IMG/VR virus record: IMGVR_UViG_3300037502_002220
Location: 32,001 to 96,000 of that record
Strand: one strand, 5' to 3'
Source of the DNA: a virus
Length of the DNA: 64,000 bases
Shown: in pieces, positions 2,003-50,348 of the stretch
How positions within the stretch are numbered: the stretch's first letter is position 1
How the letters are laid out: each line of letters opens with the position of its first letter
Translations under genes and position numbers: made by a program
The notes under the pieces: model-generated
Seen by the model: only the letters and a program-made list of their open reading frames with translations
Database searches by the model: none
Told to the model about the DNA's origin: nothing

Positions 2003-2007
2003 TACTC

Positions 2008-14500: not shown

Positions 14501-16169
14501 TTTGTATTTACTTAAGCTAAGAAGTAGGGGTGATAACGCGTTACATCTTTACGATCTGTATCAAAACTTTGAAGATCTTGTAGATTCTGTTGTAGGTACA
14601 GAGTATGAAGCAAGTATGCACGAACTTGTACGTAAACTTATTGCATATAACGTATACACTACTGGATTTGGATTCTCACCATTTACATTAGATGATGCAG
14701 TATCACCTAGGTTAGTTAATAAACTTTACAAAGAAATAGATTTCTATAACACTAAAATTACAGAAGAAGATGTTACACAGTTTGCTAACTTGTTTGTAGC
14801 TATGAACCCTAATGTGTTTAGGTTCACGATTAAACCTAAGAAAAATGAAACAAACTTTTTTAGAAATGTGAAGTATAAGTGGGACGGTACTTTTACAGCT
14901 AATGAAACAGACGTAACTATCTTAGGTAACTCGTACGCTAAACGTTATGATAGTAAAGTACCTAAGTACTTAACTATTCCTGTTCCACGTGGAACTCAAG
15001 CTCAAGTACAACCTACGCCTGTAACTGAACAACAGATTCCTGATGAACTTAAATGTTCTACACCTGGGTCAAAAGCAGAAGAAGGTATGTCTTTTGGATT
15101 TACACCAGGTAGTAACTGGGAGATAATCAAAGATTTTAAAGGACCTTCGCATGAATACGGTGGTATAGATATTATGGTTGAAGGTGGTACTATACGTATG
15201 TCTGATAAAGAAGGTGATGTTAAAGCACCAGATGGGGTAGTTATATCTAAAATTATGTCTAAGCTTAATCCTAAAAACTGGGGTGTTACTGATTATACAG
15301 ATAAAGGTAGTTTTGATGACGCATTTTTATCTGCGCGGAATGCTGAAGAAAAAGAATTTATGTATAAAAATAAAAGGTACACTACTGCGCAAAAAGGAGA
15401 AGATAGACCAGAGAGTTCTTTTAACTTAAGTAAGCCGCAAAGAGAAAGAATATACAATTCTGTGAGACCTGTAGGTTATCCTGCTGATGAAATGATACCT
15501 GCTGCTAAAAGATACATAACGGGAAGTAAGTTTTCAGATGCAGAAAGCGCTGAAGTAAGAACGGTTGAAGATGAAGATGCATGGGCATTTTTTATGGGAT
15601 TACCTCAGCAAAAAAATTCAGTAACTGAGTCAAAGTATAGACCTTCTAGCGCTAAAGATAAAAACACAAGATATTACACACTGAGAAATGCGTATCCAAA
15701 TTTTGATGAAACTGTTATTAATAACGCAGAAGCTGCTTTTACAGTTAACAAAAAATTAAACGCGGGTACTGTAAGAGGTGTTGAATCTTCATTTTTACCT
15801 TTAGAAAATGTAACTTTTTCTAAAGGTAAAGATGAGAGAGGAGATTATTATTCTATGTACGATGTGTATGATTTTAGCATTCCTTTTGAAGGAAAAATAG
15901 GAAAACCTTATGAAGTATATGACAGGGTTTATTATAAAGATTACGGAGATGGTGTTCGTAAACCTATGTATTATACCGACAATGAGCTTTTATCTTTAGA
16001 CGTAAATAAAAAGAATTTTGATACACTAGCGTTGCAAAAAGAATTATCTAACAGAGGTGTTACCTTTAAAAAGTCTGTAAAAAAAGATGGTTCTTTTGAT
16101 GGTATATTTGGAGAAGAAACTAAAGCTGCGTTGTTAGATTATCAGAATAAAAACAAACCTAAGAAATGA
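8568..16169 (+). CDS. Virion-packaged single-chain RNA polymerase (crAss-like, phi14:2 gp66 type) with N-terminal zincin-like domain and C-terminal appended module
   Basis: Catalytic SDFDIDK (DFDID at 13014-13028) preceded by RIPNQ; HEAFH plus EEVLADEF zincin motif; 2533 aa. Confidence 0.9.
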   Translation: MACQYVFQGKTYNKRSILNAIKDGDVVLGDIQTARENIRKILNMNDSEIELVRGLIDNDAVGAFTQDGRILLSDRFVQGEEYHEAFHRVFRTVFSDAQRKALFKEYRNREGFQESLDQKRKLYPNQSTEELIEEVLADEFMMYQLANGNYVVPKPIQNAFQRILNFIRKLLGLKDIAGVYEAIRAGNYKSVKPKFYKSTRLAKSKVKVGNLELDVFQKNEILDAVIAKFSTSFIEEVSDKDSFEDVDINRHLIDGIENVIDLLREDFTDPDKRDLATAIENDALNYRILEDDFTVETTINANSPIVEELTLRLDQLRIKTKEETLEPEELNDEEAVTNDHPFLKASWETNPEDNITLAMKIFATSIESSQLSDYYALPKPEPSGKVVMTLFKVLKNATHNWDVVKNLLENNVDTNPWIQTILDRLQNNLKLRTQFVRSFVKAHYDMYSGIWVKEELQVQPLEDETRFISLIREVKDYINILEDREGIVSPSLSDRNLSTKEKFRILTGIELSDEILKGTINTSKGLTTGEEIADNIIAVTRTNINEGVQYKDLFNNKVYRPTDKSEKPEDYSVLGNLRRLLNEYNKYRPSEQGVVLNHNRDRVWPWTMHTYQKQVESALNLVANLTPSELATIDSGITEGGLLPEEVNMQKRIAKLRELLPWFVDYKFNFYVDENGLTRTNSLILKRILEQGDTYSISIFSGMRLDDGTDAKDLLTPDMIPMYIRSMSGLEPKYISVKHGDRGAIFAGGFESKVKYTDNITAQDYLASLLLDEINLIRESSKYSVFKKMGDGNLKLFEFLNIDANELQKLVNDTTLTSNKLHKKYKESFDKHVEGIEADFKNLLKEVYANFDGKRFDDVFTKPGETKVPFYTTAEVFSMYNNDEEILIKEVVKNYLIHFYEDMRVFVGYAGEYPNMVNLFKRIQSLSSSGTPLVNDGELNSYIDNKNQQDAYAIITGNEVEMRTYGDRNLKQKGKIKEKVLIGPRVSYTEAEKENLAAIHKANLIKEGFPEDIAEKRAEEWVSVFDKYEEADGVTFTNMFFYREYKIRLGEWNQNMENAFQIELAILNQNTLNPEVFLAEGDRVFANRPTDLPVIRIKAFDLSNENAARVFNKLEPFTMLKPVYTGPVEHQGATVNGIRKTAFHVILPSMVFGTDKMQSIHDYMLRNNVDMISLDSATKKAVPSNVEDINVEIYSTNEDTFTILDTMYLKEQVKMSNDEKGRIKNATQSTTIVFTNIFEEDPRGFSKPKDYTGERPWNELTDEEKLAQSKVFTKHTKYKEALDAVVTMHMDRVKEDLGVVGDNITDIELVTEILRTNINVPSVRDALNYVTEAKSLDLLPSFNRIEPALLSIVSNEAVRIKRPGEMLAQYSVYGMDEVTISGVKSKRLQNYRIEGNVIRPAEIIVPLPKSMAAQLMKRFKTNNLVEAIQRYNSRDKKIIVKGLRIPNQQLSFNGIYEIKEFALPTMQNYIVLPSEIVPVSSSDFDIDKQQVYWPILDDRGNMVQTDEAGVYNRLLQAEIDLLLDPSNFHTLMAPVNEAWFSKDLFKDILIKRGEYTAEQLNSDEKLENAVIKFTFKEIGNIASQIRTAINMTQSKLNVGLMATNAKMYPVGQADSWKASSVVANEDDILIANLIPFEGDKQHFFALYDSDYRHITEIISTLMTSQLDGVKNPYAVALNIVKNSIGPMMFMVRRGMPINLIARIIASPVVTRYNTVTNLYKSNSAKARRIYPKTKGKSNVLNFMYDFSGKNAIENYLNEFKNRDRIVSSATVLKALSDKTLKTEDSLQVLAGYMYVEELAKAMLEISTAMTPDTKPLGNMSMVDVMSEKYKDFDNNFRRRAAMIDKDFKTGFLKPFYNAQKLYQLFGNLYFTRKDKLANYLTVELGTQVSAGAISVDDRARVKNTFVNDFKAYMFFKKLNESKEYKGKYTFDAIMTNSNLVDEIASIRQDETHPMSTNYLIQNLIPITGIATDPDGTTPLYLLKLRSRGDNALHLYDLYQNFEDLVDSVVGTEYEASMHELVRKLIAYNVYTTGFGFSPFTLDDAVSPRLVNKLYKEIDFYNTKITEEDVTQFANLFVAMNPNVFRFTIKPKKNETNFFRNVKYKWDGTFTANETDVTILGNSYAKRYDSKVPKYLTIPVPRGTQAQVQPTPVTEQQIPDELKCSTPGSKAEEGMSFGFTPGSNWEIIKDFKGPSHEYGGIDIMVEGGTIRMSDKEGDVKAPDGVVISKIMSKLNPKNWGVTDYTDKGSFDDAFLSARNAEEKEFMYKNKRYTTAQKGEDRPESSFNLSKPQRERIYNSVRPVGYPADEMIPAAKRYITGSKFSDAESAEVRTVEDEDAWAFFMGLPQQKNSVTESKYRPSSAKDKNTRYYTLRNAYPNFDETVINNAEAAFTVNKKLNAGTVRGVESSFLPLENVTFSKGKDERGDYYSMYDVYDFSIPFEGKIGKPYEVYDRVYYKDYGDGVRKPMYYTDNELLSLDVNKKNFDTLALQKELSNRGVTFKKSVKKDGSFDGIFGEETKAALLDYQNKNKPKK

Positions 16170-39072: not shown

Positions 39073-39389
39073 TAGTTGTCATGATTTTCTTTATAAAATA
39101 CGTACATCTGTTCTCCATCTTCATCGTACACAAAACAATGCAATAGATCTGAATATCTAAGATCTTCTACTCTTTGTATAGGATCGTTAGTATAAAAACC
39201 TTCTTGACCAGGAATATAAAAAGCAATAATACCATTTTCGATAAATTGCTCTATACTATCTTCGTCATCAGGATCTTCTACTACGTCTAATACTATTTCA
39301 AAGTCATCTTGATCAAGTACCCATACTAGCAACACACTATCTGGGTACTTATCAGCTAATGCTTTAAGTTCCATGTACATGAAGTTCAT
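39072..39389 (-). CDS. Acidic hypothetical protein
   Basis: 105 aa, coupled to neighbours. Confidence 0.6.
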   Translation of the reverse strand: MNFMYMELKALADKYPDSVLLVWVLDQDDFEIVLDVVEDPDDEDSIEQFIENGIIAFYIPGQEGFYTNDPIQRVEDLRYSDLLHCFVYDEDGEQMYVFYKENHDN

Positions 39390-41260
39390 ATAAATAACGT
39401 TAACTGTGATTGTATCAAGCCTAGATCTGTTAAGATCTCTTCCGCCTTACGTTTGTAAAAATTGTAATCTATATTATAAGGTCCTTTAACATACTTATTA
39501 AATATCGTAACCTTAGTAGATTTGATATTACCTAGCGCATGTTTTTTACCTTGACGTTCTTTAAACAAAAAGTTTCCATCTTTGGAAACATAGTACACAT
39601 TCAGTCGCTGTGGTAGTTGTTCATCACCTAAGTACATCGTATAAGATTTATCTATCTTTTGCGCACCACAAAAGTCGTAGATATCACACTTATCAAAAGT
39701 ATCTTGTAATGGTATACCATATACGAGATAGTTCTGCACTGCTTTAGGTACTGCTAAGAAATCTACTTTATTACCTAAGTCTGGATCAGTAACAAACCAA
39801 CCTTTTTCTTTAATGGAACCATCTGTAAACACACCTAGATAGCTATTTACATTAAGCATGTAGAGTGTCTCATAGCTGAAGTGTTCTAGCTCAAAGCCAG
39901 TGTACGCTTCCCAAGCTTTACACTTAGCCATAAATTCATCAAACCTATGCTCTGGTACATAAAGCTCAAAGCCATCTGTATTAGCCATAATAGGTTCACA
40001 GCCTAAGCTAATAGCTTCTTCCAGTAACATCAACAAAAACAACTGACCATTAATTGTAATCCTAAAAAAACTATATGGATCATATACTGGTGAGTTCTCT
40101 TGATTAAAGTTACCAATAGTACCATTAGCTGCTAGTTTAAGCAAGTTAGCTTCTGGTGATTTACCTTGACCAGAGTGTTTAAGTTTAAGTCTTTCTTTGC
40201 GAATATAACCTAGCTGCTCATGTAACTTACATTTTAATGTCTCAGCTAAAGCAGGATAATAACCAGCTACATCTAATGAATGGAATATATACCCTGGTTT
40301 TTGACGATACGTAGATGGTTTATTTTTACTGTGTAAACCACCTTGTTTAAGTTCAAACTGTACGTCAGCTAAAGTTACATTAAAGTGTAATGGTTTTTTA
40401 CGATGATGCCTGTTGACTTTAGTTAGCAGTACTTTAAGTTCGTGTGATTTGAATTTGATGCGATCATCTACAACTTCATAAAAGAAGTTAAAGTCTCTAG
40501 GTTCTGAGATAGGTGTTTCTATCAGCTTAAGTGCTACGTTAAGACCTAGTTTAACAGCATCAGCACTAAGTACAGATTTAGTAAACCCGTACTTTTGTAT
40601 AGCTGCTTTACGTAGATCTATCATCTCTGGAAAAGTAGTTGATTTACCTTGCCAGTTAAATTTCTTGGTGAGTAGATACTTAAGAATACCTAAGTCATGA
40701 ACTGAGTTATACTCTAATAGCTTCATGCGCATGTTATCCTGTACTGGTTCATCTGGTCTAATAGGTAACTCTTGTATAACAGGATAACGTAATTGTACAG
40801 CTAAACCTTTAAGGCTTATCTTCTTAACGATACGTAGCATTCTAGACCAGTACGTAAATAAATCTATATCGTGCCACTTGTGATGCCATTTATATTTCTT
40901 GTAGTCTTCGTTCATAAACCACGTATCATCTGTAATTACCATATCTGAAAACATCTTAATGTCTTCGTTCGTAGCTTCTGGATTAAGACGTACGTAGTTA
41001 AGTACAGGACAATCGTAGTGTATACCATTAAAGGTAACTACTTCAGTTCGTTTGTGATCTAGTAAGTTCAAGTAATGTATAAGTAATTGCCTATCGTCTT
41101 GGTACTTATCGTAAATAAAAACGTGGGTGCTACCATTAAAATCAGTAACACCCACGCAGAAGAAATTTACAAAGCACTCAACGTCTAACCCAACTCTAGT
41201 AGCATTACAGAGTTGCGTATAGGCGTACGGCATGTTTTGAATCATAGAAGGTGTGGTCAT
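39386..41260 (-). CDS. polB: DNA polymerase family B (crAss-like)
   Basis: Exonuclease DVE, FNGIHYD, YNSVHD; polymerase DVAGYYP, KLAANGTIG, ANTDG. Confidence 0.9.
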   Translation of the reverse strand: MTTPSMIQNMPYAYTQLCNATRVGLDVECFVNFFCVGVTDFNGSTHVFIYDKYQDDRQLLIHYLNLLDHKRTEVVTFNGIHYDCPVLNYVRLNPEATNEDIKMFSDMVITDDTWFMNEDYKKYKWHHKWHDIDLFTYWSRMLRIVKKISLKGLAVQLRYPVIQELPIRPDEPVQDNMRMKLLEYNSVHDLGILKYLLTKKFNWQGKSTTFPEMIDLRKAAIQKYGFTKSVLSADAVKLGLNVALKLIETPISEPRDFNFFYEVVDDRIKFKSHELKVLLTKVNRHHRKKPLHFNVTLADVQFELKQGGLHSKNKPSTYRQKPGYIFHSLDVAGYYPALAETLKCKLHEQLGYIRKERLKLKHSGQGKSPEANLLKLAANGTIGNFNQENSPVYDPYSFFRITINGQLFLLMLLEEAISLGCEPIMANTDGFELYVPEHRFDEFMAKCKAWEAYTGFELEHFSYETLYMLNVNSYLGVFTDGSIKEKGWFVTDPDLGNKVDFLAVPKAVQNYLVYGIPLQDTFDKCDIYDFCGAQKIDKSYTMYLGDEQLPQRLNVYYVSKDGNFLFKERQGKKHALGNIKSTKVTIFNKYVKGPYNIDYNFYKRKAEEILTDLGLIQSQLTLFI

Positions 41261-41762: not shown

Positions 41763-41798
41763 ACTGTTTGAGTTAGGTGTTACCCTAACCCAAACAGT
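41763..41798 (-). terminator. Long hairpin with GTAACA loop and U tract after the AAA ATPase
   Basis: actgtttgagttagg/cctaacccaaacagt; A tract at 41757-41763 on +. Confidence 0.7.
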
Positions 41799-41870: not shown

Positions 41871-43304
41871 TCAACCCTTGTAGTCTTCAGAAGAAAACTC
41901 AGAGATAATACCAGGTGCAGCTTTCTGAAGAACAGTGTGCATAACCTTACCAGCGTAGTACTCAAGACCAGCAGGTTTCTCTTGATCTTTGTGAATAAAC
42001 GCATTGTGCTGTGTGATCTGAGAGATGTTAGCTTCGATGAAATCTTCGCTAAGTTCAATCTTGAGTTCTTCAGCAGCTAAGATCAGACGCTTGCACAACT
42101 GCGTAACCTCTGAGCCAGCAATGTTTTCTGGTAAACGATTTGCAAGCTTTTCTGTGTCGATGTTCTCAAAGCCAGCAATGTGACCCAAGTTAAGGTCCAT
42201 GATGGTTTTAGACATCTCCTTAGTACAGTACGGAAACTCCACGATGAAGTCAATCCTACCACTGCGACGGAAGCTCTGGTGAATACGATCGATGTTGTTT
42301 GTAGTAAATACAAAGATAACATCAGTATTCTTCAGGCTTTGACCATCAATAGTGTTAAGGATATCGTTCATATCCGAGTTACGCTCGCCACCGAGAACAT
42401 CGTCAATGTCTTCTGCAAACACTGTAGAGTAACCGTAGTTCTCCAAGTACGGAAGCAGTGTTTCGAGCTGGTTAGAGTTGTGCAGATAGAAGAATGTTCT
42501 ACCAGCATCAATGGATTCTTTACCAAGACGGATAGCAGTTTCTGTTTTACCCGTACCATAAGGGCCATAGAACAACATCTTCTGAGACTTCTTGTTGTGA
42601 AGTTTTACATACGGAAGAATCAGGTTCGTAATCGTGACGTTGGTATCACGACTAAGTACGATGTTCTTAGCTACCTTGAGGTTGATAGGGTGCATAAGCA
42701 AACCAGAACGCAGTTGTTCGATAGTAACAGCTTTCCCTTGCATTACTTTGTTAGTAGCAACTTCTTTGCCGATGTTGCTCAAGAAGGCTTCTGCGGTTGC
42801 TTTGTACTTGTTCTTACACCGAATACCAATCGCACTTGGTGTCAACGTAAGGATAGCATCATCCCATACTTTGATAACCATAGAGCCGATAAATGCAGAT
42901 TCTTCGATTTTGTTACCTTGGTCATCAAAGCCAATAGGAATTTGCATGTACGTAGATTGCGTACGCTCACCAGTGTAATCACGTGGCGACTCGATGAACT
43001 TACCAATAGTCTTGGTAAGCACGCGGTTTACGGTAAGCAAGAAATCGTTCAGGAAGAAATTAGGGTAGTTTTGAGATACTGTGGTGATGTTCTCCCTGTG
43101 TTCAAACAGCACTGTAAGTATTTCAGCACCGTGTAGTAAATCCATGTTCCTAGGTAACAAAATGTACGGTTGATCATGATACAGAGGTTCTTCTGGAATC
43201 TTGTCAACTTTTGACTTGTAGCCGTTAGGCTTCACTGCTCTGAAGAGATCTTTGATAAACTCAAGACCTGCTGCAGATTGAACTTCTTTGACGTTTTTAG
43301 CCAT
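41871..43304 (-). CDS. AAA+ ATPase (classical AAA clade), start re-called at MAKNVK
   Basis: GPYGTGKT, FAEDID, TTN, RRSGRID (second region of homology); codon usage suggests high expression. Confidence 0.88.
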   Translation of the reverse strand: MAKNVKEVQSAAGLEFIKDLFRAVKPNGYKSKVDKIPEEPLYHDQPYILLPRNMDLLHGAEILTVLFEHRENITTVSQNYPNFFLNDFLLTVNRVLTKTIGKFIESPRDYTGERTQSTYMQIPIGFDDQGNKIEESAFIGSMVIKVWDDAILTLTPSAIGIRCKNKYKATAEAFLSNIGKEVATNKVMQGKAVTIEQLRSGLLMHPINLKVAKNIVLSRDTNVTITNLILPYVKLHNKKSQKMLFYGPYGTGKTETAIRLGKESIDAGRTFFYLHNSNQLETLLPYLENYGYSTVFAEDIDDVLGGERNSDMNDILNTIDGQSLKNTDVIFVFTTNNIDRIHQSFRRSGRIDFIVEFPYCTKEMSKTIMDLNLGHIAGFENIDTEKLANRLPENIAGSEVTQLCKRLILAAEELKIELSEDFIEANISQITQHNAFIHKDQEKPAGLEYYAGKVMHTVLQKAAPGIISEFSSEDYKG

Positions 43305-43338: not shown

Positions 43339-43440
43339 TTATTTGTGTGCAACTAATACCAATAACCCACCAGGTTGCTGATAAAAATCACAGTGTACAT
43401 CTTTAGGGGCAATTAGCCAGTGTAAGTAGTATGCTTGCAT
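43339..43440 (-). CDS. Array micro-ORF 50 (33 aa)
   Basis: MQAYYLHWLIAPKDVHCDFYQQPGGLLVLVAHK. Confidence 0.55.
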   Translation of the reverse strand: MQAYYLHWLIAPKDVHCDFYQQPGGLLVLVAHK

Positions 43441-43531
43441 ACTTTAGTATTAAAAAGTAAGAAGTATTACTTAAGTTATTTTCTACTGGAATACGAATAT
43501 ACATGTGGTAATAGAACTTTATTGTGTTCAT
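43403..43531 (-). CDS. Array micro-ORF 49 (42 aa)
   Basis: MNTIKFYYHMYIRIPVENNLSNTSYFLILKYASILLTLANCP. Confidence 0.65.
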   Translation of the reverse strand: MNTIKFYYHMYIRIPVENNLSNTSYFLILKYASILLTLANCP

Positions 43532-43641
43532 ACTTTAAAGTTTAATGTGTAGAAAATAGAAGTCTTTGCTAACAAGAATACAGTTCGTCGTTTCATAGAC
43601 CACCAGTATTTTTTATTCACGTCAATGCTGTATATATTCAT
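43528..43641 (-). CDS. Array micro-ORF 48 (37 aa)
   Basis: MNIYSIDVNKKYWWSMKRRTVFLLAKTSIFYTLNFKV. Confidence 0.6.
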   Translation of the reverse strand: MNIYSIDVNKKYWWSMKRRTVFLLAKTSIFYTLNFKV

Positions 43642-43746
43642 TTACTGTATATATAGTTTTTGAACTAAATAACAATAGTTAAGTTCGTATACTAAACTGC
43701 AGTGAAAAGTAGGATGTACCCACTCCATGTTTTTAAATATCAACAT
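43642..43746 (-). CDS. Array micro-ORF 47 (34 aa)
   Basis: MLIFKNMEWVHPTFHCSLVYELNYCYLVQKLYIQ. Confidence 0.6.
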   Translation of the reverse strand: MLIFKNMEWVHPTFHCSLVYELNYCYLVQKLYIQ

Positions 43747-43850
43747 ATTAACTTATTTACTAATATGAATATTTTTGAAGCAGCGTGTATTCTAATTATA
43801 GTAGTGCGATAATTGTACGCAAACATTGTTGAAATACCTCTTACTAACAT
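43740..43850 (-). CDS. Array micro-ORF 46 (36 aa)
   Basis: MLVRGISTMFAYNYRTTIIRIHAASKIFILVNKLIC. Confidence 0.6.
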   Translation of the reverse strand: MLVRGISTMFAYNYRTTIIRIHAASKIFILVNKLIC

Positions 43851-43951
43851 AACATGTATTTTAACAAGGCTTTTACATCAACTCTATTTTCATTAGCATT
43901 GCTGAAGTAAAAGTCTTGTGCTCTTGTTAATCTTAGATTACTTACCTCCAT
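43844..43951 (-). CDS. Array micro-ORF 45 (35 aa)
   Basis: MEVSNLRLTRAQDFYFSNANENRVDVKALLKYMLC. Confidence 0.65.
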   Translation of the reverse strand: MEVSNLRLTRAQDFYFSNANENRVDVKALLKYMLC

Positions 43952-44058
43952 AGTACATACTTTAAGACTGGTACAAGATCAGCTTCTGGTTGATTTGCAA
44001 AATGTATTAGTTTTTTAGAACCGTAGTTACTTACATCGTAAAGTGTAGTACATCTCAT
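43942..44058 (-). CDS. Array micro-ORF 44 (38 aa)
   Basis: MRCTTLYDVSNYGSKKLIHFANQPEADLVPVLKYVLWR. Confidence 0.65.
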   Translation of the reverse strand: MRCTTLYDVSNYGSKKLIHFANQPEADLVPVLKYVLWR

Positions 44059-44168
44059 ACAATAAACTTTAAGCAGCAGTCGTGAAAAACAAGTTGTCTA
44101 GTAGAAGCTTTATGTAGTTCTTTACAACCAGCAGAGTAGTTTGTGAACCTAAGCATTACAAATGTCAT
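44055..44168 (-). CDS. Array micro-ORF 43 (37 aa)
   Basis: MTFVMLRFTNYSAGCKELHKASTRQLVFHDCCLKFIV. Confidence 0.65.
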   Translation of the reverse strand: MTFVMLRFTNYSAGCKELHKASTRQLVFHDCCLKFIV

Positions 44169-44274
44169 AGTACAGGTATTTAATCATCAATAAATACTTA
44201 GTGTTATACATCTCTCCAGATATAAAACTACGTAGATTTTGTATATGGTATCTATTTAATCTTTCTGTAGGCAT
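44149..44274 (-). CDS. Array micro-ORF 42 (41 aa)
   Basis: MPTERLNRYHIQNLRSFISGEMYNTKYLLMIKYLYYDICNA. Confidence 0.6.
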   Translation of the reverse strand: MPTERLNRYHIQNLRSFISGEMYNTKYLLMIKYLYYDICNA

Positions 44275-44369
44275 TATTGAAATTTTATAATTAATTGATA
44301 ACTATTTCTAACCGTAGGTGAGTAAAACATCATATCAACTACATGGTACCTTACTTTTATTACGTGCAT
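44274..44369 (-). CDS. Array micro-ORF 41 (31 aa)
   Basis: MHVIKVRYHVVDMMFYSPTVRNSYQLIIKFQ. Confidence 0.6.
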   Translation of the reverse strand: MHVIKVRYHVVDMMFYSPTVRNSYQLIIKFQ

Positions 44370-44464
44370 TTTACAATTATTTTTACGTAGTGATCGTAAT
44401 AAGGTTTCCACATGAACTTTCTACTTATACGAGCTCGTATGTATTGTACTTCTTCACTCCACAT
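44360..44464 (-). CDS. Array micro-ORF 40 (34 aa)
   Basis: MWSEEVQYIRARISRKFMWKPYYDHYVKIIVKCT. Confidence 0.55.
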   Translation of the reverse strand: MWSEEVQYIRARISRKFMWKPYYDHYVKIIVKCT

Positions 44465-44567
44465 ATTTTATAGGTATTAGCGCATATGATTTTGTAAATG
44501 TATTTGGTCTGTACAATATCTCAGCGTGAGCTCTATCAAATAGATAAACAGATTTAGCTGTGTTCAT
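44454..44567 (-). CDS. Array micro-ORF 39 (37 aa)
   Basis: MNTAKSVYLFDRAHAEILYRPNTFTKSYALIPIKYVE. Confidence 0.6.
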   Translation of the reverse strand: MNTAKSVYLFDRAHAEILYRPNTFTKSYALIPIKYVE

Positions 44568-44686
44568 CGTTTTTTACATATGATTAAGTAAATAGTATTT
44601 ACATTATCAAAATATAAATCACCGCACGATTCTTTCTTAGAACGGTAATAATACTGATAGTAAAAATCATCTGGTTCAAATTCCAT
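44564..44686 (-). CDS. Array micro-ORF 38 (40 aa)
   Basis: MEFEPDDFYYQYYYRSKKESCGDLYFDNVNTIYLIICKKR. Confidence 0.6.
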   Translation of the reverse strand: MEFEPDDFYYQYYYRSKKESCGDLYFDNVNTIYLIICKKR

Positions 44687-44689
44687 AGT

Positions 44690-44788
44690 TTACAGTTTAT
44701 ATGTTTGTGATACAATAAAATGTAATTTAGTTCCACCAAACTTAATAGTACTAATTACAACTTCTTGCATTAGAAAAAATATGTTCAT
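44690..44788 (-). CDS. Array micro-ORF 37 (32 aa)
   Basis: MNIFFLMQEVVISTIKFGGTKLHFIVSQTYKL. Confidence 0.55.
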   Translation of the reverse strand: MNIFFLMQEVVISTIKFGGTKLHFIVSQTYKL

Positions 44789-44886
44789 AGCTGTTTGATT
44801 ATAACACGGTGCCAGATATCTTCAGAGTAATGTTCTTTATCTACAGACTTGTAAATTGTAAATAACTTTACAAATTGTGTAAGCAT
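44785..44886 (-). CDS. Array micro-ORF 36 (33 aa)
   Basis: MLTQFVKLFTIYKSVDKEHYSEDIWHRVIIKQL. Confidence 0.6.
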   Translation of the reverse strand: MLTQFVKLFTIYKSVDKEHYSEDIWHRVIIKQL

Positions 44887-44887
44887 G

Positions 44888-45010
44888 CTAGTGGTATTTA
44901 AGCATTGTAATAAATGTATGTAGATGATACTCTATTGTTATAGCTGGGTAGCATTTAGGTACGTAGAACGTATAGCTTAGTTCCATAGTGTATATCTTAC
45001 TTGTTTGCAT
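44888..45010 (-). CDS. Array micro-ORF 35 (40 aa; alternative start 44986)
   Basis: MQTSKIYTMELSYTFYVPKCYPAITIEYHLHTFITMLKYH. Confidence 0.6.
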   Translation of the reverse strand: MQTSKIYTMELSYTFYVPKCYPAITIEYHLHTFITMLKYH

Positions 45011-45123
45011 GGTACGTGTTTTGTAATTATACCGAATGATTGCATTGTGTACGTAAACATTAATTTATGCGGTATAAACGTTTTACTGCGATTAGGTACA
45101 CAAATAATTAAAATTACTTCCAT
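44977..45123 (-). CDS. Array micro-ORF 34 (48 aa)
   Basis: MEVILIICVPNRSKTFIPHKLMFTYTMQSFGIITKHVPCKQVRYTLWN. Confidence 0.65.
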   Translation of the reverse strand: MEVILIICVPNRSKTFIPHKLMFTYTMQSFGIITKHVPCKQVRYTLWN

Positions 45124-45227
45124 GATACACGTTTTACTACAATTCTAAACCCAGTATCTAGTATATTTCTATTAGGAAACCTGAGTTCGTGATTAGCTTG
45201 TACAACACCGTTTAGATATATCATCAT
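45114..45227 (-). CDS. Array micro-ORF 33 (37 aa)
   Basis: MMIYLNGVVQANHELRFPNRNILDTGFRIVVKRVSWK. Confidence 0.7.
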   Translation of the reverse strand: MMIYLNGVVQANHELRFPNRNILDTGFRIVVKRVSWK

Positions 45228-45346
45228 CGTATAAACTTTAGTGTTAGTATAAACCTATCTCTTTCTGTCATATTGTTGTGTATATATTGAATAACACTCT
45301 TACCCATACCTCTAAAATCTGGATATATACAAATTAAGATCATCAT
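45224..45346 (-). CDS. Array micro-ORF 32 (40 aa)
   Basis: MMILICIYPDFRGMGKSVIQYIHNNMTERDRFILTLKFIR. Confidence 0.7.
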   Translation of the reverse strand: MMILICIYPDFRGMGKSVIQYIHNNMTERDRFILTLKFIR

Positions 45347-45462
45347 AGTATTTGCTTTAGTGTTATTTTAAATACGTCGTATATAGTTAAGGTGTCTTGC
45401 AAAGATTGAGGACAATCTTTATTTGCATTAAATTTTGGGTAACAAACTATTATGTAAATCAT
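45343..45462 (-). CDS. Array micro-ORF 31 (39 aa)
   Basis: MIYIIVCYPKFNANKDCPQSLQDTLTIYDVFKITLKQIL. Confidence 0.7.
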   Translation of the reverse strand: MIYIIVCYPKFNANKDCPQSLQDTLTIYDVFKITLKQIL

Positions 45463-45578
45463 GATACATGTTTTAAGATAAGTTGAAATCTATCGTCGTA
45501 CACAATATCAGCTACAAGGTTTGCTTCTACCCTACTCTTGTAAGCTGCAGGATTGCGTACAAATATTACTGCTAACAT
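45459..45578 (-). CDS. Array micro-ORF 30 (39 aa)
   Basis: MLAVIFVRNPAAYKSRVEANLVADIVYDDRFQLILKHVS. Confidence 0.7.
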   Translation of the reverse strand: MLAVIFVRNPAAYKSRVEANLVADIVYDDRFQLILKHVS

Positions 45579-45685
45579 GGTATCTGTTTTAAGGTAACAT
45601 GAAGTCTAAGCGCATTGATTGAAGGATGACCTAAACGTATGTGTGAAAATTGTTCAGATTTAATTTGTAGTTCTATGTATTTCAT
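45572..45685 (-). CDS. Array micro-ORF 29 (37 aa)
   Basis: MKYIELQIKSEQFSHIRLGHPSINALRLHVTLKQIPC. Confidence 0.7.
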   Translation of the reverse strand: MKYIELQIKSEQFSHIRLGHPSINALRLHVTLKQIPC

Positions 45686-45701
45686 GGTATTTGTTTTAAT
45701 A

Positions 45702-45818
45702 TTACAGTAATTGTGCTTGTTTTAAGATAACACGATATCTTTCCATACTAATTCCCATACCGTGAATATACGCTTGATAAATCGTATTAGGACTAGTTAT
45801 TATGTCAATGTGAAACAT
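45702..45818 (-). CDS. Array micro-ORF 28 (38 aa)
   Basis: MFHIDIITSPNTIYQAYIHGMGISMERYRVILKQAQLL. Confidence 0.65.
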   Translation of the reverse strand: MFHIDIITSPNTIYQAYIHGMGISMERYRVILKQAQLL

Positions 45819-45918
45819 GTACTTGTTTTAAGATAATAGAAAAGCTCTCACGACCACTGTATCCTAACATTATTACAGTTAAAAAAGCGGCTGTGTATCC
45901 ATATGCGTCAGTTCTCAT
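45805..45918 (-). CDS. Array micro-ORF 27 (37 aa)
   Basis: MRTDAYGYTAAFLTVIMLGYSGRESFSIILKQVHVSH. Confidence 0.7.
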   Translation of the reverse strand: MRTDAYGYTAAFLTVIMLGYSGRESFSIILKQVHVSH

Positions 45919-46019
45919 GGTATTAATTTTAAAGTAATCGAAAAGCAATCATATCCGCTATGTCCTAGTTCGTGTACATAAATATAACTATACGCGTGTC
46001 CATATGCCCATGTGTTCAT
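45915..46019 (-). CDS. Array micro-ORF 26 (34 aa)
   Basis: MNTWAYGHAYSYIYVHELGHSGYDCFSITLKLIP. Confidence 0.7.
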   Translation of the reverse strand: MNTWAYGHAYSYIYVHELGHSGYDCFSITLKLIP

Positions 46020-46126
46020 AACATTAGTTTTAATATTATTGACAAATCATCTTGAACAACTTCGTTTAGTTCTACTTCATTAAAAGGTATTACGCCTTTT
46101 CCAATAAGTAAGTATATCGTATTCAT
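46016..46126 (-). CDS. Array micro-ORF 25 (36 aa)
   Basis: MNTIYLLIGKGVIPFNEVELNEVVQDDLSIILKLML. Confidence 0.7.
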   Translation of the reverse strand: MNTIYLLIGKGVIPFNEVELNEVVQDDLSIILKLML

Positions 46127-46242
46127 AATACAAACTTTATCATAACTAAAAAATCATCATCAAAAATTGGTATTAAACCACGGTCTTTGTTTACTAGCTT
46201 ACAAGAATAAAAAGAGTAACCTACGTAACTTGTTAAGTCCAT
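46123..46242 (-). CDS. Array micro-ORF 24 (39 aa)
   Basis: MDLTSYVGYSFYSCKLVNKDRGLIPIFDDDFLVMIKFVL. Confidence 0.7.
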   Translation of the reverse strand: MDLTSYVGYSFYSCKLVNKDRGLIPIFDDDFLVMIKFVL

Positions 46243-46319
46243 AATATTTTGATTGTGATTAAAACACTGTCGTCTGCGTAAAATATGTGATCTACAAGTG
46301 TTATGTATTTTGTGTCCAT
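46233..46319 (-). CDS. Array micro-ORF 23 (28 aa)
   Basis: MDTKYITLVDHIFYADDSVLITIKILWT. Confidence 0.65.
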   Translation of the reverse strand: MDTKYITLVDHIFYADDSVLITIKILWT

Positions 46320-46426
46320 AATATTAGTTTTAACGTAATTACAAAATCTTCGCACATAGCATTTGAACGTTTGATTTCACGTGCTGTAAGTAATGATTCA
46401 GATACTAGTATTCTGTAATATTCCAC
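46301..46426 (-). CDS. Array micro-ORF 22 (41 aa, GTG start)
   Basis: MEYYRILVSESLLTAREIKRSNAMCEDFVITLKLILWTQNT. Confidence 0.6.
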   Translation of the reverse strand: MEYYRILVSESLLTAREIKRSNAMCEDFVITLKLILWTQNT

Positions 46427-46542
46427 TTTAAGGTTATTAAAACATTATCGTATAAGTTTACACCCCTGTACGAATTAAAATATGTACTAGACATTATTTC
46501 TCGTCCAAGAAGTTTAACTGCTTCTAAACGTCGTATTTCCAT
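46405..46542 (-). CDS. Array micro-ORF 21 (45 aa)
   Basis: MEIRRLEAVKLLGREIMSSTYFNSYRGVNLYDNVLITLKWNITEY. Confidence 0.6.
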   Translation of the reverse strand: MEIRRLEAVKLLGREIMSSTYFNSYRGVNLYDNVLITLKWNITEY

Positions 46543-46667
46543 GTCAGTATAATTAAGAAATCTTTATCCTCAAGTTTTGTTCTTTTTAATCTATCCAGTA
46601 AATGTTCATTACCATGTGTACCAATAGGCATACATAGATCTAACATTGTAAAGTATTTTACTTCCAT
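46524..46667 (-). CDS. Array micro-ORF 20 (47 aa)
   Basis: MEVKYFTMLDLCMPIGTHGNEHLLDRLKRTKLEDKDFLIILTWKYDV. Confidence 0.6.
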   Translation of the reverse strand: MEVKYFTMLDLCMPIGTHGNEHLLDRLKRTKLEDKDFLIILTWKYDV

Positions 46668-46792
46668 CACATGTATTTAACCGTAAAAATAAAATCATTC
46701 TTGACGTAGCTACAATTACTAAATGCTAGGTAATCTAAATACAGTTTACAATCTATACTATGTACCCACATTGTTAAGTCTGTAAATTTCAT
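46667..46792 (-). CDS. Array micro-ORF 19 (41 aa)
   Basis: MKFTDLTMWVHSIDCKLYLDYLAFSNCSYVKNDFIFTVKYM. Confidence 0.7.
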   Translation of the reverse strand: MKFTDLTMWVHSIDCKLYLDYLAFSNCSYVKNDFIFTVKYM

Positions 46793-46911
46793 ACCATGTG
46801 TTTATTTGCTAATTGTAAAATAACCTTAAGATGTGCACAGTTAACATAAGGTGGAATAAACACATCATTATCTAATAAAATGTATTCCCAATCCCTATAT
46901 TCTACTTGCAT
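46789..46911 (-). CDS. Array micro-ORF 18 (40 aa)
   Basis: MQVEYRDWEYILLDNDVFIPPYVNCAHLKVILQLANKHMV. Confidence 0.7.
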   Translation of the reverse strand: MQVEYRDWEYILLDNDVFIPPYVNCAHLKVILQLANKHMV

Positions 46912-47021
46912 ACCATGTACTTTTTTATAAGCCTAAAGTTAGGTTTAAAGAAAGCGTATTTAATAACATAGGGCTCAAGAAACACGTCTGTAGTATAGTT
47001 CCAACCAGTTTCTACTTTCAC
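46902..47021 (-). CDS. Array micro-ORF 17 (39 aa, GTG start)
   Basis: MKVETGWNYTTDVFLEPYVIKYAFFKPNFRLIKKYMVCK. Confidence 0.7.
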   Translation of the reverse strand: MKVETGWNYTTDVFLEPYVIKYAFFKPNFRLIKKYMVCK

Positions 47022-47137
47022 GATATTTGTTTTACAGTAATTAAAGGTAGTACAGTAGGCTTACTTATTCTGCGATCAGCATCATACATTGGATTTGATA
47101 TAGGAAGGTTTACGTAAAAGGTCATAAATGCTATCAT
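47018..47137 (-). CDS. Array micro-ORF 16 (39 aa)
   Basis: MIAFMTFYVNLPISNPMYDADRRISKPTVLPLITVKQIS. Confidence 0.7.
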   Translation of the reverse strand: MIAFMTFYVNLPISNPMYDADRRISKPTVLPLITVKQIS

Positions 47138-47241
47138 AATCTGTATTTTAGTACAAATATTACAATGTCTATCTTAGGTGCATGTTTTAGCTTGTCGTGA
47201 AATCTATAGCCATCAAAGGTATAGTCTAATGAAGCTTTCAT
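47134..47241 (-). CDS. Array micro-ORF 15 (35 aa)
   Basis: MKASLDYTFDGYRFHDKLKHAPKIDIVIFVLKYRL. Confidence 0.7.
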   Translation of the reverse strand: MKASLDYTFDGYRFHDKLKHAPKIDIVIFVLKYRL

Positions 47242-47339
47242 ACAAATATTTTACTGATGACTAAAAGAGATCTACCTGCGTAAGTTGTTTTTAATTTTCC
47301 ACTAGAACTGTCGACCCATAAAATGTATAGCAACCTCAT
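47238..47339 (-). CDS. Array micro-ORF 14 (33 aa)
   Basis: MRLLYILWVDSSSGKLKTTYAGRSLLVISKIFV. Confidence 0.7.
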   Translation of the reverse strand: MRLLYILWVDSSSGKLKTTYAGRSLLVISKIFV

Positions 47340-47437
47340 TCTGCATGTTTTATAGTAATGAATAAACATATTCCACATTTACCAGATCTTCTGTCATTCT
47401 TAAGGTTAGTACCTACGACACTGTGTGTTATAATCAT
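47336..47437 (-). CDS. Array micro-ORF 13 (33 aa)
   Basis: MIITHSVVGTNLKNDRRSGKCGICLFITIKHAE. Confidence 0.7.
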   Translation of the reverse strand: MIITHSVVGTNLKNDRRSGKCGICLFITIKHAE

Positions 47438-47553
47438 TGTATGTGTTTTAAACTAATTCTAAATCTAAGTACAGTAATGACATAGGCTTTAAGATCCATT
47501 TTTAGCACTAAGTCACTGTTCTTTAATGTCTCAACAAATCCTACAAATTTCAT
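47434..47553 (-). CDS. Array micro-ORF 12 (39 aa)
   Basis: MKFVGFVETLKNSDLVLKMDLKAYVITVLRFRISLKHIQ. Confidence 0.7.
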   Translation of the reverse strand: MKFVGFVETLKNSDLVLKMDLKAYVITVLRFRISLKHIQ

Positions 47554-47699
47554 GGTATGTATTTTACAATAGCTCCAAAATTACTTGCGTTATGGTTCAA
47601 GTTTAAATAATCTACAGCTTCGTGTAAACGTATAGTCATGTAGTTATTTATGTACGGTGTAGTAACTGCTCTGTACATCATTAAGTCTATAAATTTCAT
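47550..47699 (-). CDS. Array micro-ORF 11 (49 aa)
   Basis: MKFIDLMMYRAVTTPYINNYMTIRLHEAVDYLNLNHNASNFGAIVKYIP. Confidence 0.7.
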   Translation of the reverse strand: MKFIDLMMYRAVTTPYINNYMTIRLHEAVDYLNLNHNASNFGAIVKYIP

Positions 47700-47821
47700 G
47701 ATACAAGTTTTAATGTAAACAAATGTCCACGACTTTGCCGAGATGCGTTCATTACATAGGTTTTTGCACGTGTCCGATCACTTGTAAATGGGAGGTATGC
47801 AATTATGTGCCTTATTTTCAC
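47696..47821 (-). CDS. Array micro-ORF 10 (41 aa, GTG start)
   Basis: MKIRHIIAYLPFTSDRTRAKTYVMNASRQSRGHLFTLKLVS. Confidence 0.7.
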   Translation of the reverse strand: MKIRHIIAYLPFTSDRTRAKTYVMNASRQSRGHLFTLKLVS

Positions 47822-47925
47822 GGTATTATTTTTAATGTAATTAATAATCTTTTTGGTATCGTACTTCTTATCAATCTTATGTTGAGGAAGTCAGTGTCAT
47901 TTTTAAATATTTGTACAAATTTCAT
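47818..47925 (-). CDS. Array micro-ORF 9 (35 aa)
   Basis: MKFVQIFKNDTDFLNIRLIRSTIPKRLLITLKIIP. Confidence 0.7.
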   Translation of the reverse strand: MKFVQIFKNDTDFLNIRLIRSTIPKRLLITLKIIP

Positions 47926-48053
47926 AAAACTAGCTTTAGCATAACGTAAAATGAATAAGGAGGTACGTTATCTAATTGTAATACCTCAAGTACGTGTTCT
48001 GTTAACGTGCATACAGACTCGTCTTTAACAAGTATCATTTCAATAAATCTCAT
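47922..48053 (-). CDS. Array micro-ORF 8 (43 aa)
   Basis: MRFIEMILVKDESVCTLTEHVLEVLQLDNVPPYSFYVMLKLVL. Confidence 0.7.
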   Translation of the reverse strand: MRFIEMILVKDESVCTLTEHVLEVLQLDNVPPYSFYVMLKLVL

Positions 48054-48074
48054 GATTTAAGTTTTAACAGGGTT

Positions 48075-48290
48075 TTACGTAAGTGGTCCAAAATATCTTC
48101 TGTTAATTTCAGTTAACAGCGCACTTCTTAAAACAATTAATCCTATGTGAAAACTTTTTGCAAGATTGTATTTAAAAATTAATTGCCTGACAATTGAATT
48201 TTCATTAAAAGCTAATGATTCAGACTCTTTAGAAATGCCCATTAATTCTTCTGTAGATAATTCTTTTAGGTATTCAGCTAATGTTTCCAT
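48075..48290 (-). CDS. Unrelated helical 71-aa protein inserted in the array
   Basis: METLAEYLKELSTEEL...; lacks the array motif; flanked by 17-nt near-identical direct repeats. Confidence 0.7.
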   Translation of the reverse strand: METLAEYLKELSTEELMGISKESESLAFNENSIVRQLIFKYNLAKSFHIGLIVLRSALLTEINRRYFGPLT

Positions 48291-48394
48291 GATTTATGTT
48301 TTAAAATAATTTGAAAATGTGTACGTTTTACAGAGTAGCTCAAATCGAGCACTAAAATCTTATAGTCACTTAAGTAATAAACTAAAGTGTTCAC
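48278..48394 (-). CDS. Array micro-ORF 7 (38 aa, GTG start)
   Basis: MNTLVYYLSDYKILVLDLSYSVKRTHFQIILKHKSWKH. Confidence 0.7.
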   Translation of the reverse strand: MNTLVYYLSDYKILVLDLSYSVKRTHFQIILKHKSWKH

Positions 48395-48531
48395 AGTTTA
48401 TGTTTTTGCACAAAAAAGAAGTAATTACAATCTTTAAAATCGTAATCTATAACTGTACATATTTCTGCAAAGTTGATTGTTAAAAGTGTATAGCTATTTT
48501 TGAATATTAATACTATATAAACATTGCTCAT
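48391..48531 (-). CDS. Array micro-ORF 6 (46 aa)
   Basis: MSNVYIVLIFKNSYTLLTINFAEICTVIDYDFKDCNYFFFVQKHKL. Confidence 0.7.
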   Translation of the reverse strand: MSNVYIVLIFKNSYTLLTINFAEICTVIDYDFKDCNYFFFVQKHKL

Positions 48532-48641
48532 AGCTTATATTTTAATAAGATATTGTAATGAAGCATGTAATTACCTCTACCTGTGAGATATACATCTATA
48601 CCATTGTGGCGTATATCTAACAATAATCTGAGTGTGTTCAT
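48528..48641 (-). CDS. Array micro-ORF 5 (37 aa)
   Basis: MNTLRLLLDIRHNGIDVYLTGRGNYMLHYNILLKYKL. Confidence 0.7.
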   Translation of the reverse strand: MNTLRLLLDIRHNGIDVYLTGRGNYMLHYNILLKYKL

Positions 48642-48763
48642 TTTCTGTATTTTATTACAGCCCAGAAATGCATCAATAAACCTGTACCTATATGTCGATG
48701 TAATATTATATTACCATCTGTAGATTTAAAGTTTGATATCTCAAGTACTCCTAAGTAGTTCAT
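48638..48763 (-). CDS. Array micro-ORF 4 (41 aa)
   Basis: MNYLGVLEISNFKSTDGNIILHRHIGTGLLMHFWAVIKYRK. Confidence 0.7.
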   Translation of the reverse strand: MNYLGVLEISNFKSTDGNIILHRHIGTGLLMHFWAVIKYRK

Positions 48764-48879
48764 AATGCCAGTTTTAGTAGTGATAAATAACAAAAATCAA
48801 GCCTTAAAAAGTGGTTTGTTTCATCGTGGTGTGAGTATGTTATACATATGTACATAGAATAAATTTCAGATAGATACAT
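48760..48879 (-). CDS. Array micro-ORF 3 (39 aa)
   Basis: MYLSEIYSMYICITYSHHDETNHFLRLDFCYLSLLKLAL. Confidence 0.6.
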   Translation of the reverse strand: MYLSEIYSMYICITYSHHDETNHFLRLDFCYLSLLKLAL

Positions 48880-48979
48880 AACTAGGTATGTATTTTAATA
48901 TTAAATGAGGTGTTATCTTAGCCATAGACATTGTCATAGAATATACGTTGATGTCTGCAAATAAAAGTACCGTCTTCAT
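48866..48979 (-). CDS. Array micro-ORF 2 (37 aa)
   Basis: MKTVLLFADINVYSMTMSMAKITPHLILKYIPSYVSI. Confidence 0.65.
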   Translation of the reverse strand: MKTVLLFADINVYSMTMSMAKITPHLILKYIPSYVSI

Positions 48980-49080
48980 GATAGAATTTTCATTGTTACA
49001 GGTATGCTTATTTCATCAGCTTGTAGTGTATATAAATAAAGTCTATCGTACTGTGTTATGTATAAAACTTTCATTTTCAT
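48976..49080 (-). CDS. Array micro-ORF 1 (34 aa)
   Basis: MKMKVLYITQYDRLYLYTLQADEISIPVTMKILS. Confidence 0.65.
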   Translation of the reverse strand: MKMKVLYITQYDRLYLYTLQADEISIPVTMKILS

Positions 49081-49101
49081 AGGTAGGTATATTAAACACA
49101 A

Positions 49102-49124
49102 ATGCCCTTGGTTTACAAGGGCAT
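49102..49124 (-). promoter_or_regulatory. Hairpin just upstream of the micro-ORF array (terminator/attenuator or 5' stabiliser)
   Basis: atgcccttg/caagggcat perfect 9-bp stem, followed by TTGTGTTT on -. Confidence 0.55.
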
Positions 49125-49130
49125 CGTGGA

Positions 49131-49523: not shown

Positions 49524-50348
49524 TCAATAGAAAAAGATATTAGACATGTACTCTTCTTTTGGAAACTTATCTTTCCAGATATCCTCGTCCATATAGGGTA
49601 AGTTATCGGGAACAGCCATTTTCCACACATTACCTACAGTATCGTAGATACCGTACTTGTTTGGTTTCTTCTTCTTTACAGGTTGTGTTTTACCACCCAT
49701 CTCTGCAGTAGTCCATGCAATCTCTTGAATATCTGTACGAGTATCTAAGTTCTCAGCATGATCTGCAGCGATTGTAGTCCACTCTGCTTTTGTAGGAAAC
49801 AGGAATACAGCGTGACCTTTGATAGCTGGGTTATACCAGAACCACCACTGACCGTTGTACTCTTTCATGATATACGGCATTGGTTTACCGTGCATATCAT
49901 TTAACCAGTTGATGTACGAGATTGCGTTCAAGATCTCAAGGTTAATCGCTGGGCGATCATCGCGACCATAGTTTTGATCATTAGCGAGATCTCTTCCTGT
50001 CATATAACAGAAAGCATCAAACTGGTTGAACGTAACTACGGTATCTGCTGATGCAACAAGTGGAAAACACTCTGCAGGTAACGGTACAAAAGTACCTAAA
50101 TCAATGTCTTTGTCGCTGATAGTCTTTTGCTCAAAAGCACGTTGTGATGTAGCTACAGCAACTACAAACGGTTCTACAGGTTTTCTGTTGACCACATTAA
50201 TAATTGCAATAGCATTACGGTGTACTTCTTCAAGCTCTGGTGTGTTGAAATACTTACGCATTTTAGGTAATGCTTGTGCATACCATTTACCAAAATCTTT
50301 AGAAGAAGCTTTTTGTTGAACTTGATCTTTAAATTCTTGTACAGTCAT
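49524..50348 (-). CDS. FGE-sulfatase/SUMF1-family (C-type lectin fold) domain protein, divergent
   Basis: VTFNQF, RPAINL, PTKAEW, TQPVKKKKPNKYGIYDTVGNVW. Confidence 0.75.
   Translation of the reverse strand: MTVQEFKDQVQQKASSKDFGKWYAQALPKMRKYFNTPELEEVHRNAIAIINVVNRKPVEPFVVAVATSQRAFEQKTISDKDIDLGTFVPLPAECFPLVASADTVVTFNQFDAFCYMTGRDLANDQNYGRDDRPAINLEILNAISYINWLNDMHGKPMPYIMKEYNGQWWFWYNPAIKGHAVFLFPTKAEWTTIAADHAENLDTRTDIQEIAWTTAEMGGKTQPVKKKKPNKYGIYDTVGNVWKMAVPDNLPYMDEDIWKDKFPKEEYMSNIFFY

Follow-up and report, generated by a model that had tools for sequence, protein, structure and literature searches.

A chain of about fifty micro-genes in a putative crAss-like phage, probably reshuffled as whole cassettes at the start signals between them

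The subject of this study is a row of very small open reading frames (ORFs) in a 64,000-nucleotide stretch of viral DNA, hereafter the window, which corresponds to bases 32001-96000 of the 105,444-base-pair IMG/VR virus record IMGVR_UViG_3300037502_002220. The row, referred to below as the array, is placed as follows:

43339 to 49074, minus strand: the whole array, 51 abutting ORFs, made up of 50 micro-ORFs of 28-49 amino acids (aa; median 38) and a single gene of 71 aa.

We consider it probable, from comparisons of sequences, that the row is a hyperplastic array of cassettes, each a real and translated micro-gene of a crAss-like phage, and that they recombine at the boxes carrying their start signals. 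Each cassette consists of an ATG, usually overlapping the previous stop codon as ATGA, followed by about 30 variable codons and by a 3' end that bears the start signal of the next gene. Recombination at the boxes, either unequal or with co-infecting relatives, would duplicate, delete, or swap whole cassettes, as the positions of the breakpoints suggest; since each cassette holds its own start together with the signal for the next gene, such an exchange would leave the chain translatable. Between relatives, most changes of the array are gains, losses, and swaps of whole units at the start signals, and tandem duplication, which an earlier note on this DNA had put forward as its mode of growth, accounts for a minority.

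The comparison that carries this reading is with a sister phage (contig L002, IMGVR_UViG_3300036770_003758), which has a syntenic array and whose AAA+ ATPase, encoded next to the array, is 93% identical to that of the window. Units of the window carry the letter W and numbers one above the ORF numbers of the earlier note (ORF26/27 are W27/W28), and those of the sister phage carry the letter R. The sister array has 57 units versus 51. Orthologous pairs number 43, the window has 8 units of its own, and the sister phage has 14 (22 cassettes, for which gains are not separable from losses). In the DNA alignment the diagonal is displaced about 12 times, by roughly one unit length at each step, and these whole-unit indels and replacements, between phages whose flanks stand at a synonymous divergence (dS) of about 0.4, support the birth-and-death evolution that had been suggested. 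Homology blocks end no more than 18 nucleotides (nt) from an ATG in 18 of 23 cases, compared with 33% expected (p=1.1e-5). At W29/R30 and at W32/R34 the replacement of a cassette is sharp: in these two alignments, identity is about 90-98% up to the box, drops to the random level in the body of the cassette, and is back at the next box. In addition, dS between orthologous units runs from 0 to about 2 and is heterogeneous (chi-square 117, 42 degrees of freedom, p=6e-9), an unevenness that points to a mosaic history. Four of the 22 lineage-specific cassettes (R12, R16, R35, and R44) are near-tandem duplicates of a unit 1-2 positions off, and for the remaining 18 neither array holds a detectable paralogue. 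One cassette without a counterpart in the window, at 8652-8780 (plus strand) of the sister contig, encodes 42 aa with a hydrophobic, membrane-spanning-like segment and a basic tail.

The micro-ORFs appear to be real genes that are translated. Stop and start codons overlap as ATGA at 26 of the 50 junctions, overlap or abutment is found at 46 of them, and 52 ORFs abut in one chain, to be compared with a mean of 2.3 and a maximum of 5 in 200 first-order Markov simulations, and with chains of at most 4 elsewhere in the phage. The frames remain open in the sister phage despite a nucleotide divergence of about 15%. Reassignment of stop codons (TGA=W, TAG=Q, TAA=Q) was rejected, as it yields no long ORFs in the array. 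The possibility of a CRISPR array or of a non-coding tandem repeat was discarded too: Tandem Repeats Finder reported no array and Rfam no match, the repeated element is a degenerate box of 17-20 nt, and the “spacers” between the boxes are open frames under purifying selection. Searches of the array with Rfam and for tRNAs found nothing, none of its 51 products had a match in Pfam or PHROGs, and a BLAST search with the array found no match in the phage collection. The likeness of W12 to the C-terminal fragment of a transposase (ESM Atlas, score 0.94) is treated as chance because Pfam found nothing for this unit; a search for W12 in further viral contigs found it in the sister phage alone.

What links the units is the box at their junctions, TTAAAAYAnnTAYY-ATG, a direct repeat with a period of about 115 nt that puts TAAAA 13 nt before each next ATG. 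Among 48 junctions aligned on the ATG, 40 have T at -13, and A is found at -12, -11, -10, and -9 in 42, 45, 38, and 32, respectively, and at -3 in 34. G is rare across -20 to -1, in the array and in ordinary genes, and there is no G-rich Shine-Dalgarno sequence. A comparable context precedes 85 ordinary genes of the phage, on both strands and with late-type genes included, A being found at -14 to -11 in 48-60 of them and at -3 in 55, and the genes of phage phi14:2 have similar boxes. In Flavobacterium johnsoniae, where initiation proceeds without Shine-Dalgarno sequences, ribosome profiling shows that A at -14 to -11 and at -3 promotes initiation (PMC6847099); the box of the array is 1-2 nt nearer to the ATG than the published -14 to -11. 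An excess of T some 24-26 nt ahead of start codons (-26 to -24) is seen in the array and in ordinary genes alike; it may belong to the start signal as well, in which case it would favor hydrophobic codons near the ends of the upstream ORFs.

Two junctions of the array contain short non-coding spacers, in which the box is present as well:

48054 to 48074, minus strand: non-coding spacer, with a TTAAAAC box that precedes the ATG of W09 (48053) by 13 nt.
45686 to 45701, minus strand: non-coding spacer, with a TTAAAAC box before the ATG of W30 (45685).

The bases conserved before 45685 are non-coding in the window and coding in the sister phage. Across 26 orthologous junctions, changes at -13, -12, and -11 number 0, 2, and 0, versus 9 at -14; position -12 is a third codon position and -14 a first one, yet the former is far steadier between orthologues. 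AlphaFold2 gives the shared end as a strand in the W27 family and as a helix in the W33 family, with low to moderate confidence (mean pLDDT 69 and 67, respectively). The constraint on the shared TLK end acts on nucleotides, and the shared ends are not protein homology. With the ATGA overlap the box reads as the codons xTA-AAA, which give L-K, and then three more codons, so the proteins end in hydrophobic-T/I-L-K-x-x-x because the start signal of the next gene occupies their last codons. In a similar manner, the common beginnings MK, MN, and MR arise because the ATGA overlap makes the second codon begin with A, to which the genome-wide A-rich start context is added. The MKF beginnings of ORFs 9, 11, 12, and 19, once read as a trace of paralogy, are therefore no such sign, being largely forced by the overlaps.

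An alternative is that the box serves chiefly another purpose than translation, as a repeated promoter of the virion RNA polymerase, as a site where RNA is processed, or as a site dedicated to recombination. In favor of this, the box of the array exceeds the A-rich stretch of ordinary genes in length and uniformity, breakpoints cluster at it, and no early promoter has been defined for crAss-like phages (preprint 10.1101/2020.03.07.982082). Against these points stand its fixed distance to every ATG and the presence of the A-box and of the A at -3 before the 85 other genes, on both strands and late-type included. Neither hairpins nor sigma-70-like or TTTG/TAnnTTTG sites are enriched in the array: sigma-70-like sites number 40 compared with 46.8 in shuffles, and the TTTG/TAnnTTTG motifs are those of Bacteroidota promoters. 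Moreover, the early transcripts of phi14:2 have no common upstream motif (preprint 10.1101/2020.03.07.982082), and for this reason the idea that the early genes of crAss-like phages share a repeated promoter for the virion RNA polymerase was dropped. On balance, we regard a box of this other kind as very unlikely.

A second array, built like that of the window, belongs to a distant lineage (contig L122, the same phage as L109/L123), whose ATPase is 51% and whose polymerase is 68% identical and whose flanks are syntenic. It has 29 units with a median of 45 aa at the same site, and its junction profile matches that of the window, while its units have no similarity with those of the window (mean score 16.79 versus 16.76 for shuffled sequences). 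Within this array the two top-scoring pairs are neighbors (adjacency p=0.005), and an acidic, hydrophobic motif before the L-K, described below for the window, recurs in it. At 6106-6244 (plus strand) of L122, a tandem duplication of about 70 nt, 86% identical, gives two adjacent micro-ORFs that both start with MSL(R/K)EY, and looks like a young duplicate. Relatives with 31-37% identity in the ATPase have ordinary genes upstream of it and no array. A scan of IMG/VR for three boxes in register returned at least 119 stretches, mostly tandem repeats of giant viruses; ORF chains were found only in the sister phage and L109, among the matches listed.

The earlier note regarded the units as relatives of one another, and the features on which this view was based, or which extend it, are the following:

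45915 to 46019, minus strand: W27 (ORF26), member of the strongest adjacent paralogue pair; its orthologue in the sister phage is R28.
45805 to 45918, minus strand: W28 (ORF27), paralogue of W27; its ATG at 45918 overlaps the stop of W27 as ATGA.
46902 to 47021, minus strand: W18 (ORF17), paired with W19.
46789 to 46911, minus strand: W19 (ORF18), paralogue of W18.
45224 to 45462, minus strand: W32 and W33 (ORF31/32), a weak pair, with W32 at 45343-45462 and W33 at 45224-45346.
45114 to 46670, minus strand: W21-W34, 14 consecutive units with an acidic, hydrophobic pre-terminal motif.

For the comparison of the proteins, each sequence was trimmed of its first two residues and of the end encoded from 20 nt before the following ATG onward, and 50 units were aligned all versus all by Smith-Waterman (1,225 pairs), with 36,750 shuffled pairs as the null. 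The mean local score of the trimmed pairs is 15.85, versus 15.90 for the shuffled ones. The top scores belong to W27/W28 (48), W18/W19 (39), W12/W47 (39), and W32/W33 (33), whereas the null has a maximum of 46 and a 99.9th percentile of 34; W27/W28 alone is clearly above it, followed by W18/W19. The gapless alignment of ORF26 and ORF27 is thus confirmed, at 44% identity, and ORF17 and ORF18 can be aligned as proposed, with 44% identity and two gaps. For ORF31 and ORF32 a weak relation holds (36% identity), and the TLK end that they have in common belongs to the nucleotide signal. All three pairs are also found in the sister phage, where W33 is doubled (R35/R36), and predate the split of the two phages. 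In other words, the three named pairs stand out from shuffled controls, and the rest of the 50 units do no better than the shuffles.

Similarity along the array has the same mixed character. Adjacent units are more alike than in permuted order (p=0.002), and once the three pairs are removed this whole-unit signal is lost (p=0.25); over the 10 residues before the L-K, neighbors have a local, in-register similarity (p=0.0015). The claim that similarity is local along the array accordingly survives for neighbors and for the segment before the L-K, and not for whole units outside the pairs. The acidic residues noticed before the end of ORFs 20-25 are real, and their distribution is broader, since a motif [DE][DN]xF/LxI(T)LK runs through W21-W34. 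Because most units are without a detectable paralogue, the family likeness is mainly the shared translation signal.

These data bear on the view of the array as one paralogous family of micro-proteins with a conserved C-terminal TLK strand, growing in tandem under diversifying, arms-race selection. There is some substance to it: the window has three adjacent paralogue pairs, the sister phage has four near-tandem duplicates, the best pairs of the distant relative are adjacent, and the non-synonymous divergence of the micro-genes is 2-8 times that of the flanking genes. Growth by tandem duplication is therefore real, although it explains only 4 of the 22 differences between the two phages. For the other parts of this view, trimmed pairs score like shuffled controls, the TLK end is a nucleotide signal, no paralogue was detected for 18 of the 22 cassettes that differ, and the ratio of non-synonymous to synonymous divergence (dN/dS) is 0.32 and not above 1, with no unit individually significant. 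A single paralogous family is not supported, as trimmed units are no more alike than shuffles; its one-family and diversifying-selection parts are largely refuted, and as a whole we hold this explanation to be unlikely.

Selection was assessed on 1,541 orthologous codons of the window and sister arrays, for which dS is 0.43, dN is 0.139, and dN/dS is 0.33; the unit middles alone give 0.32 (bootstrap 95% interval 0.25-0.38). Flanking genes have a similar dS (0.12-0.84) and a dN/dS of 0.04-0.16, with the exception of a 57-aa ORF at 0.45. The proteins of the micro-genes evolve several-fold faster than those of the flanks, yet under net purifying selection, and several units are 95-100% conserved as protein between the two phages. 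Values of dN/dS above 1 occur in two units only (W11 and W15), on 13-20 substitutions each. The diversifying selection that had been suspected finds no support in the pooled value or in that of the middles, nor does it within the paralogue pairs, where dN/dS is 0.2-1.1 on a saturated dS (0.56-1.8). As for composition, amino acid frequencies correlate with those of a random stop-free translation of the local bases at r=0.93 (0.72 for long genes), and the guanine-plus-cytosine (GC) content at codon position 1 is 0.35 in the micro-ORFs versus 0.47.

The latter figures invite a different explanation, in which the peptides are functionless, and the ORFs with their start signals persist only to keep a long leader covered by ribosomes, which would prevent polarity or RNA decay, or would time or attenuate the expression of the ATPase. 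It would suit the random-like composition and weak coding signature, the lack of a Pfam or PHROGs match for any unit, the full turnover of unit content at about 50% ATPase identity, and the arrangement itself, with no internal terminator and the ATPase directly downstream. Selection for openness alone, on the other hand, cannot yield a dN/dS of 0.32 in the middle of the units, even at its upper bound of 0.38; furthermore, the 95-100% conservation of several units is at odds with functionless peptides, and the old paralogue pairs retain specific residues in both phages. We judge this explanation, too, to be improbable.

The preferred reading, that of a shuffled array of translated micro-genes, has weak points of its own. 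Translation and function of the micro-ORFs are read from sequence alone, and recombination at the boxes from where the breakpoints fall; BLAST segments tend to continue into any box that is shared, so that the breakpoints look somewhat more clustered than they are. The sample consists of only two independent lineages. Some units may be barely constrained, as their random-like composition and low position-1 GC suggest, and a promoter for the array was not found among the sigma-70-like and Bacteroidota motifs tested. Finally, the acidic, hydrophobic motif before the L-K, recurring in the distant relative, could be a true protein-level motif beyond the start signal. With these points considered, we infer that the peptides are moderately constrained but individually dispensable, and by analogy with other phages their role would most likely be an accessory one in host takeover or counter-defence. 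The array and the downstream AAA+ ATPase would be expressed as one long operon. A bolder possibility, which we find doubtful, is that the array is a selected, evolvable peptide library, whose box doubles as a recombination module by which the lineage would keep making, shuffling, and testing near-random peptides of about 38 residues. If this were true, the array would be a nursery of new host-takeover or counter-defence genes, possibly together with the co-transcribed AAA+ ATPase, and its architecture would be selected for generating diversity, going beyond a merely tolerant accessory region.

The surroundings of the array, together with the one unit of a different kind that it contains, include these features:

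41871 to 43304, minus strand: AAA+ ATPase, directly downstream of the array, used as the synteny anchor for finding relatives.
41763 to 41798, minus strand: terminator-like hairpin, after the ATPase.
49101 to 49125, minus strand: terminator-like hairpin, just upstream of the array.
48075 to 48290, minus strand: W08, the 71-aa gene inserted in the array, not in the sister phage, member of a separate, widespread small-protein family.

The two hairpins bracket the array and the ATPase, and no terminator-like hairpins were seen inside the array. Homologues of W08 are present in 20 other cluster representatives (about 40-56% identity, E-values down to 1.5e-14) and, where named by the source, are called “hypothetical protein”. 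The array of 51 ORFs sits between the AAA+ ATPase and replication genes on one side and, on the other, the gene at 49524-50348 (minus strand) for a 274-aa protein with an FGE-sulfatase (sulfatase-modifying-factor-like) domain (E=1e-9), which is 96% identical in the sister phage. The DNA polymerase at 39386-41260 has its nearest likeness, about 28% identity, in the polymerases of crAss-like phages. A 2,533-aa protein at 8568-16169 (plus strand) has the sequence DFDID at residue 1483, which is the catalytic motif of the virion RNA polymerase of phi14:2 (preprint 10.1101/2020.03.07.982082); a PHROG search gave no match for this protein nor for the adjoining one of 2,186 aa. On the basis of the polymerase similarity and of the DFDID protein, the window is treated as coming from an uncultured crAss-like phage with a Bacteroidota-type host.

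With regard to phi14:2 itself, the idea that its “long non-coding” regions are hidden arrays of micro-ORFs was rejected, as no such chain occurs there. Its genome (NC_021806) has about a dozen ORFs at 1300-4600, most of 34-52 codons, that were dropped in the re-annotation of June 2020, and the gap that separates g004 from g006 probably corresponds to one of the two “long intergenic”, highly transcribed regions of the preprint. Annotation routinely misses or deletes rows of tiny overlapping genes, the removal of similar small ORFs from phi14:2 in 2020 being a case in point. A literature search, not exhaustive, found no published description of micro-gene arrays in crAss-like phages, and the present case supplies measured rates for the turnover of cassettes and for purifying selection on about 40 micro-proteins, from which the question of what such peptides do in Bacteroidota phages can be taken up. 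It also carries a caution for chained genes in general: since the next start signal imposes a family-like ending, sequences should be trimmed before paralogy or selection is inferred.

Several known systems resemble the array in part. Its junctions are like the initiation regions of Bacteroidota (PMC6847099) in being A-rich about 11-14 nt upstream, with A at -3 and no purine-rich Shine-Dalgarno sequence, and unlike them in that the box is sharper (TAAAA at -13 to -9) and lies inside the preceding ORF, fixing its last residues. With integrons the array shares self-contained cassettes of the same orientation, a conserved boundary, and gain, loss, and swap of whole cassettes, whereas its boundary is a translation signal and not an attC site. 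An integron cassette array was rejected: no attC-type hairpins, that is, junction-centred inverted repeats, were seen in the array, and no integrase domain was found among the 10 array-side neighbor proteins scanned, the rest of the genome not being scanned for one. Lytic phages have clusters of small early host-takeover or accessory genes, such as the host-takeover module of SPO1, the class I genes of T7, and the pre-early genes of T5. These are like the array in comprising many small orphan proteins beside a replication module, dispensable and variable between relatives, and unlike it in that their proteins are usually 50-150 aa, with intergenic signals of their own.

Among described systems, the array comes closest to the hyperplastic regions of T4-type phages, in which small orphan genes are shuffled by recombination between repeated promoter/terminator cassettes, the promoter-early stem-loop (PeSL) cassettes (PMC2839356; PMC4122927). 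In both, clusters of small, non-essential orphan genes lie between conserved modules, a short motif is repeated between the genes, and indels and replacements between close relatives break at this motif. The features of the PeSL itself, a sigma-70-like promoter with a terminator stem-loop, are absent from the array, whose junction repeats are not palindromic: here the motif is a start signal in the coding 3' end, in place of an intergenic promoter and terminator hairpin, and the genes are far smaller (median 38 aa), ATGA-chained, and about 50 in an uninterrupted row. The array can thus be seen as a translation-signal version of the regulatory-cassette shuffling known in T4-type phages.

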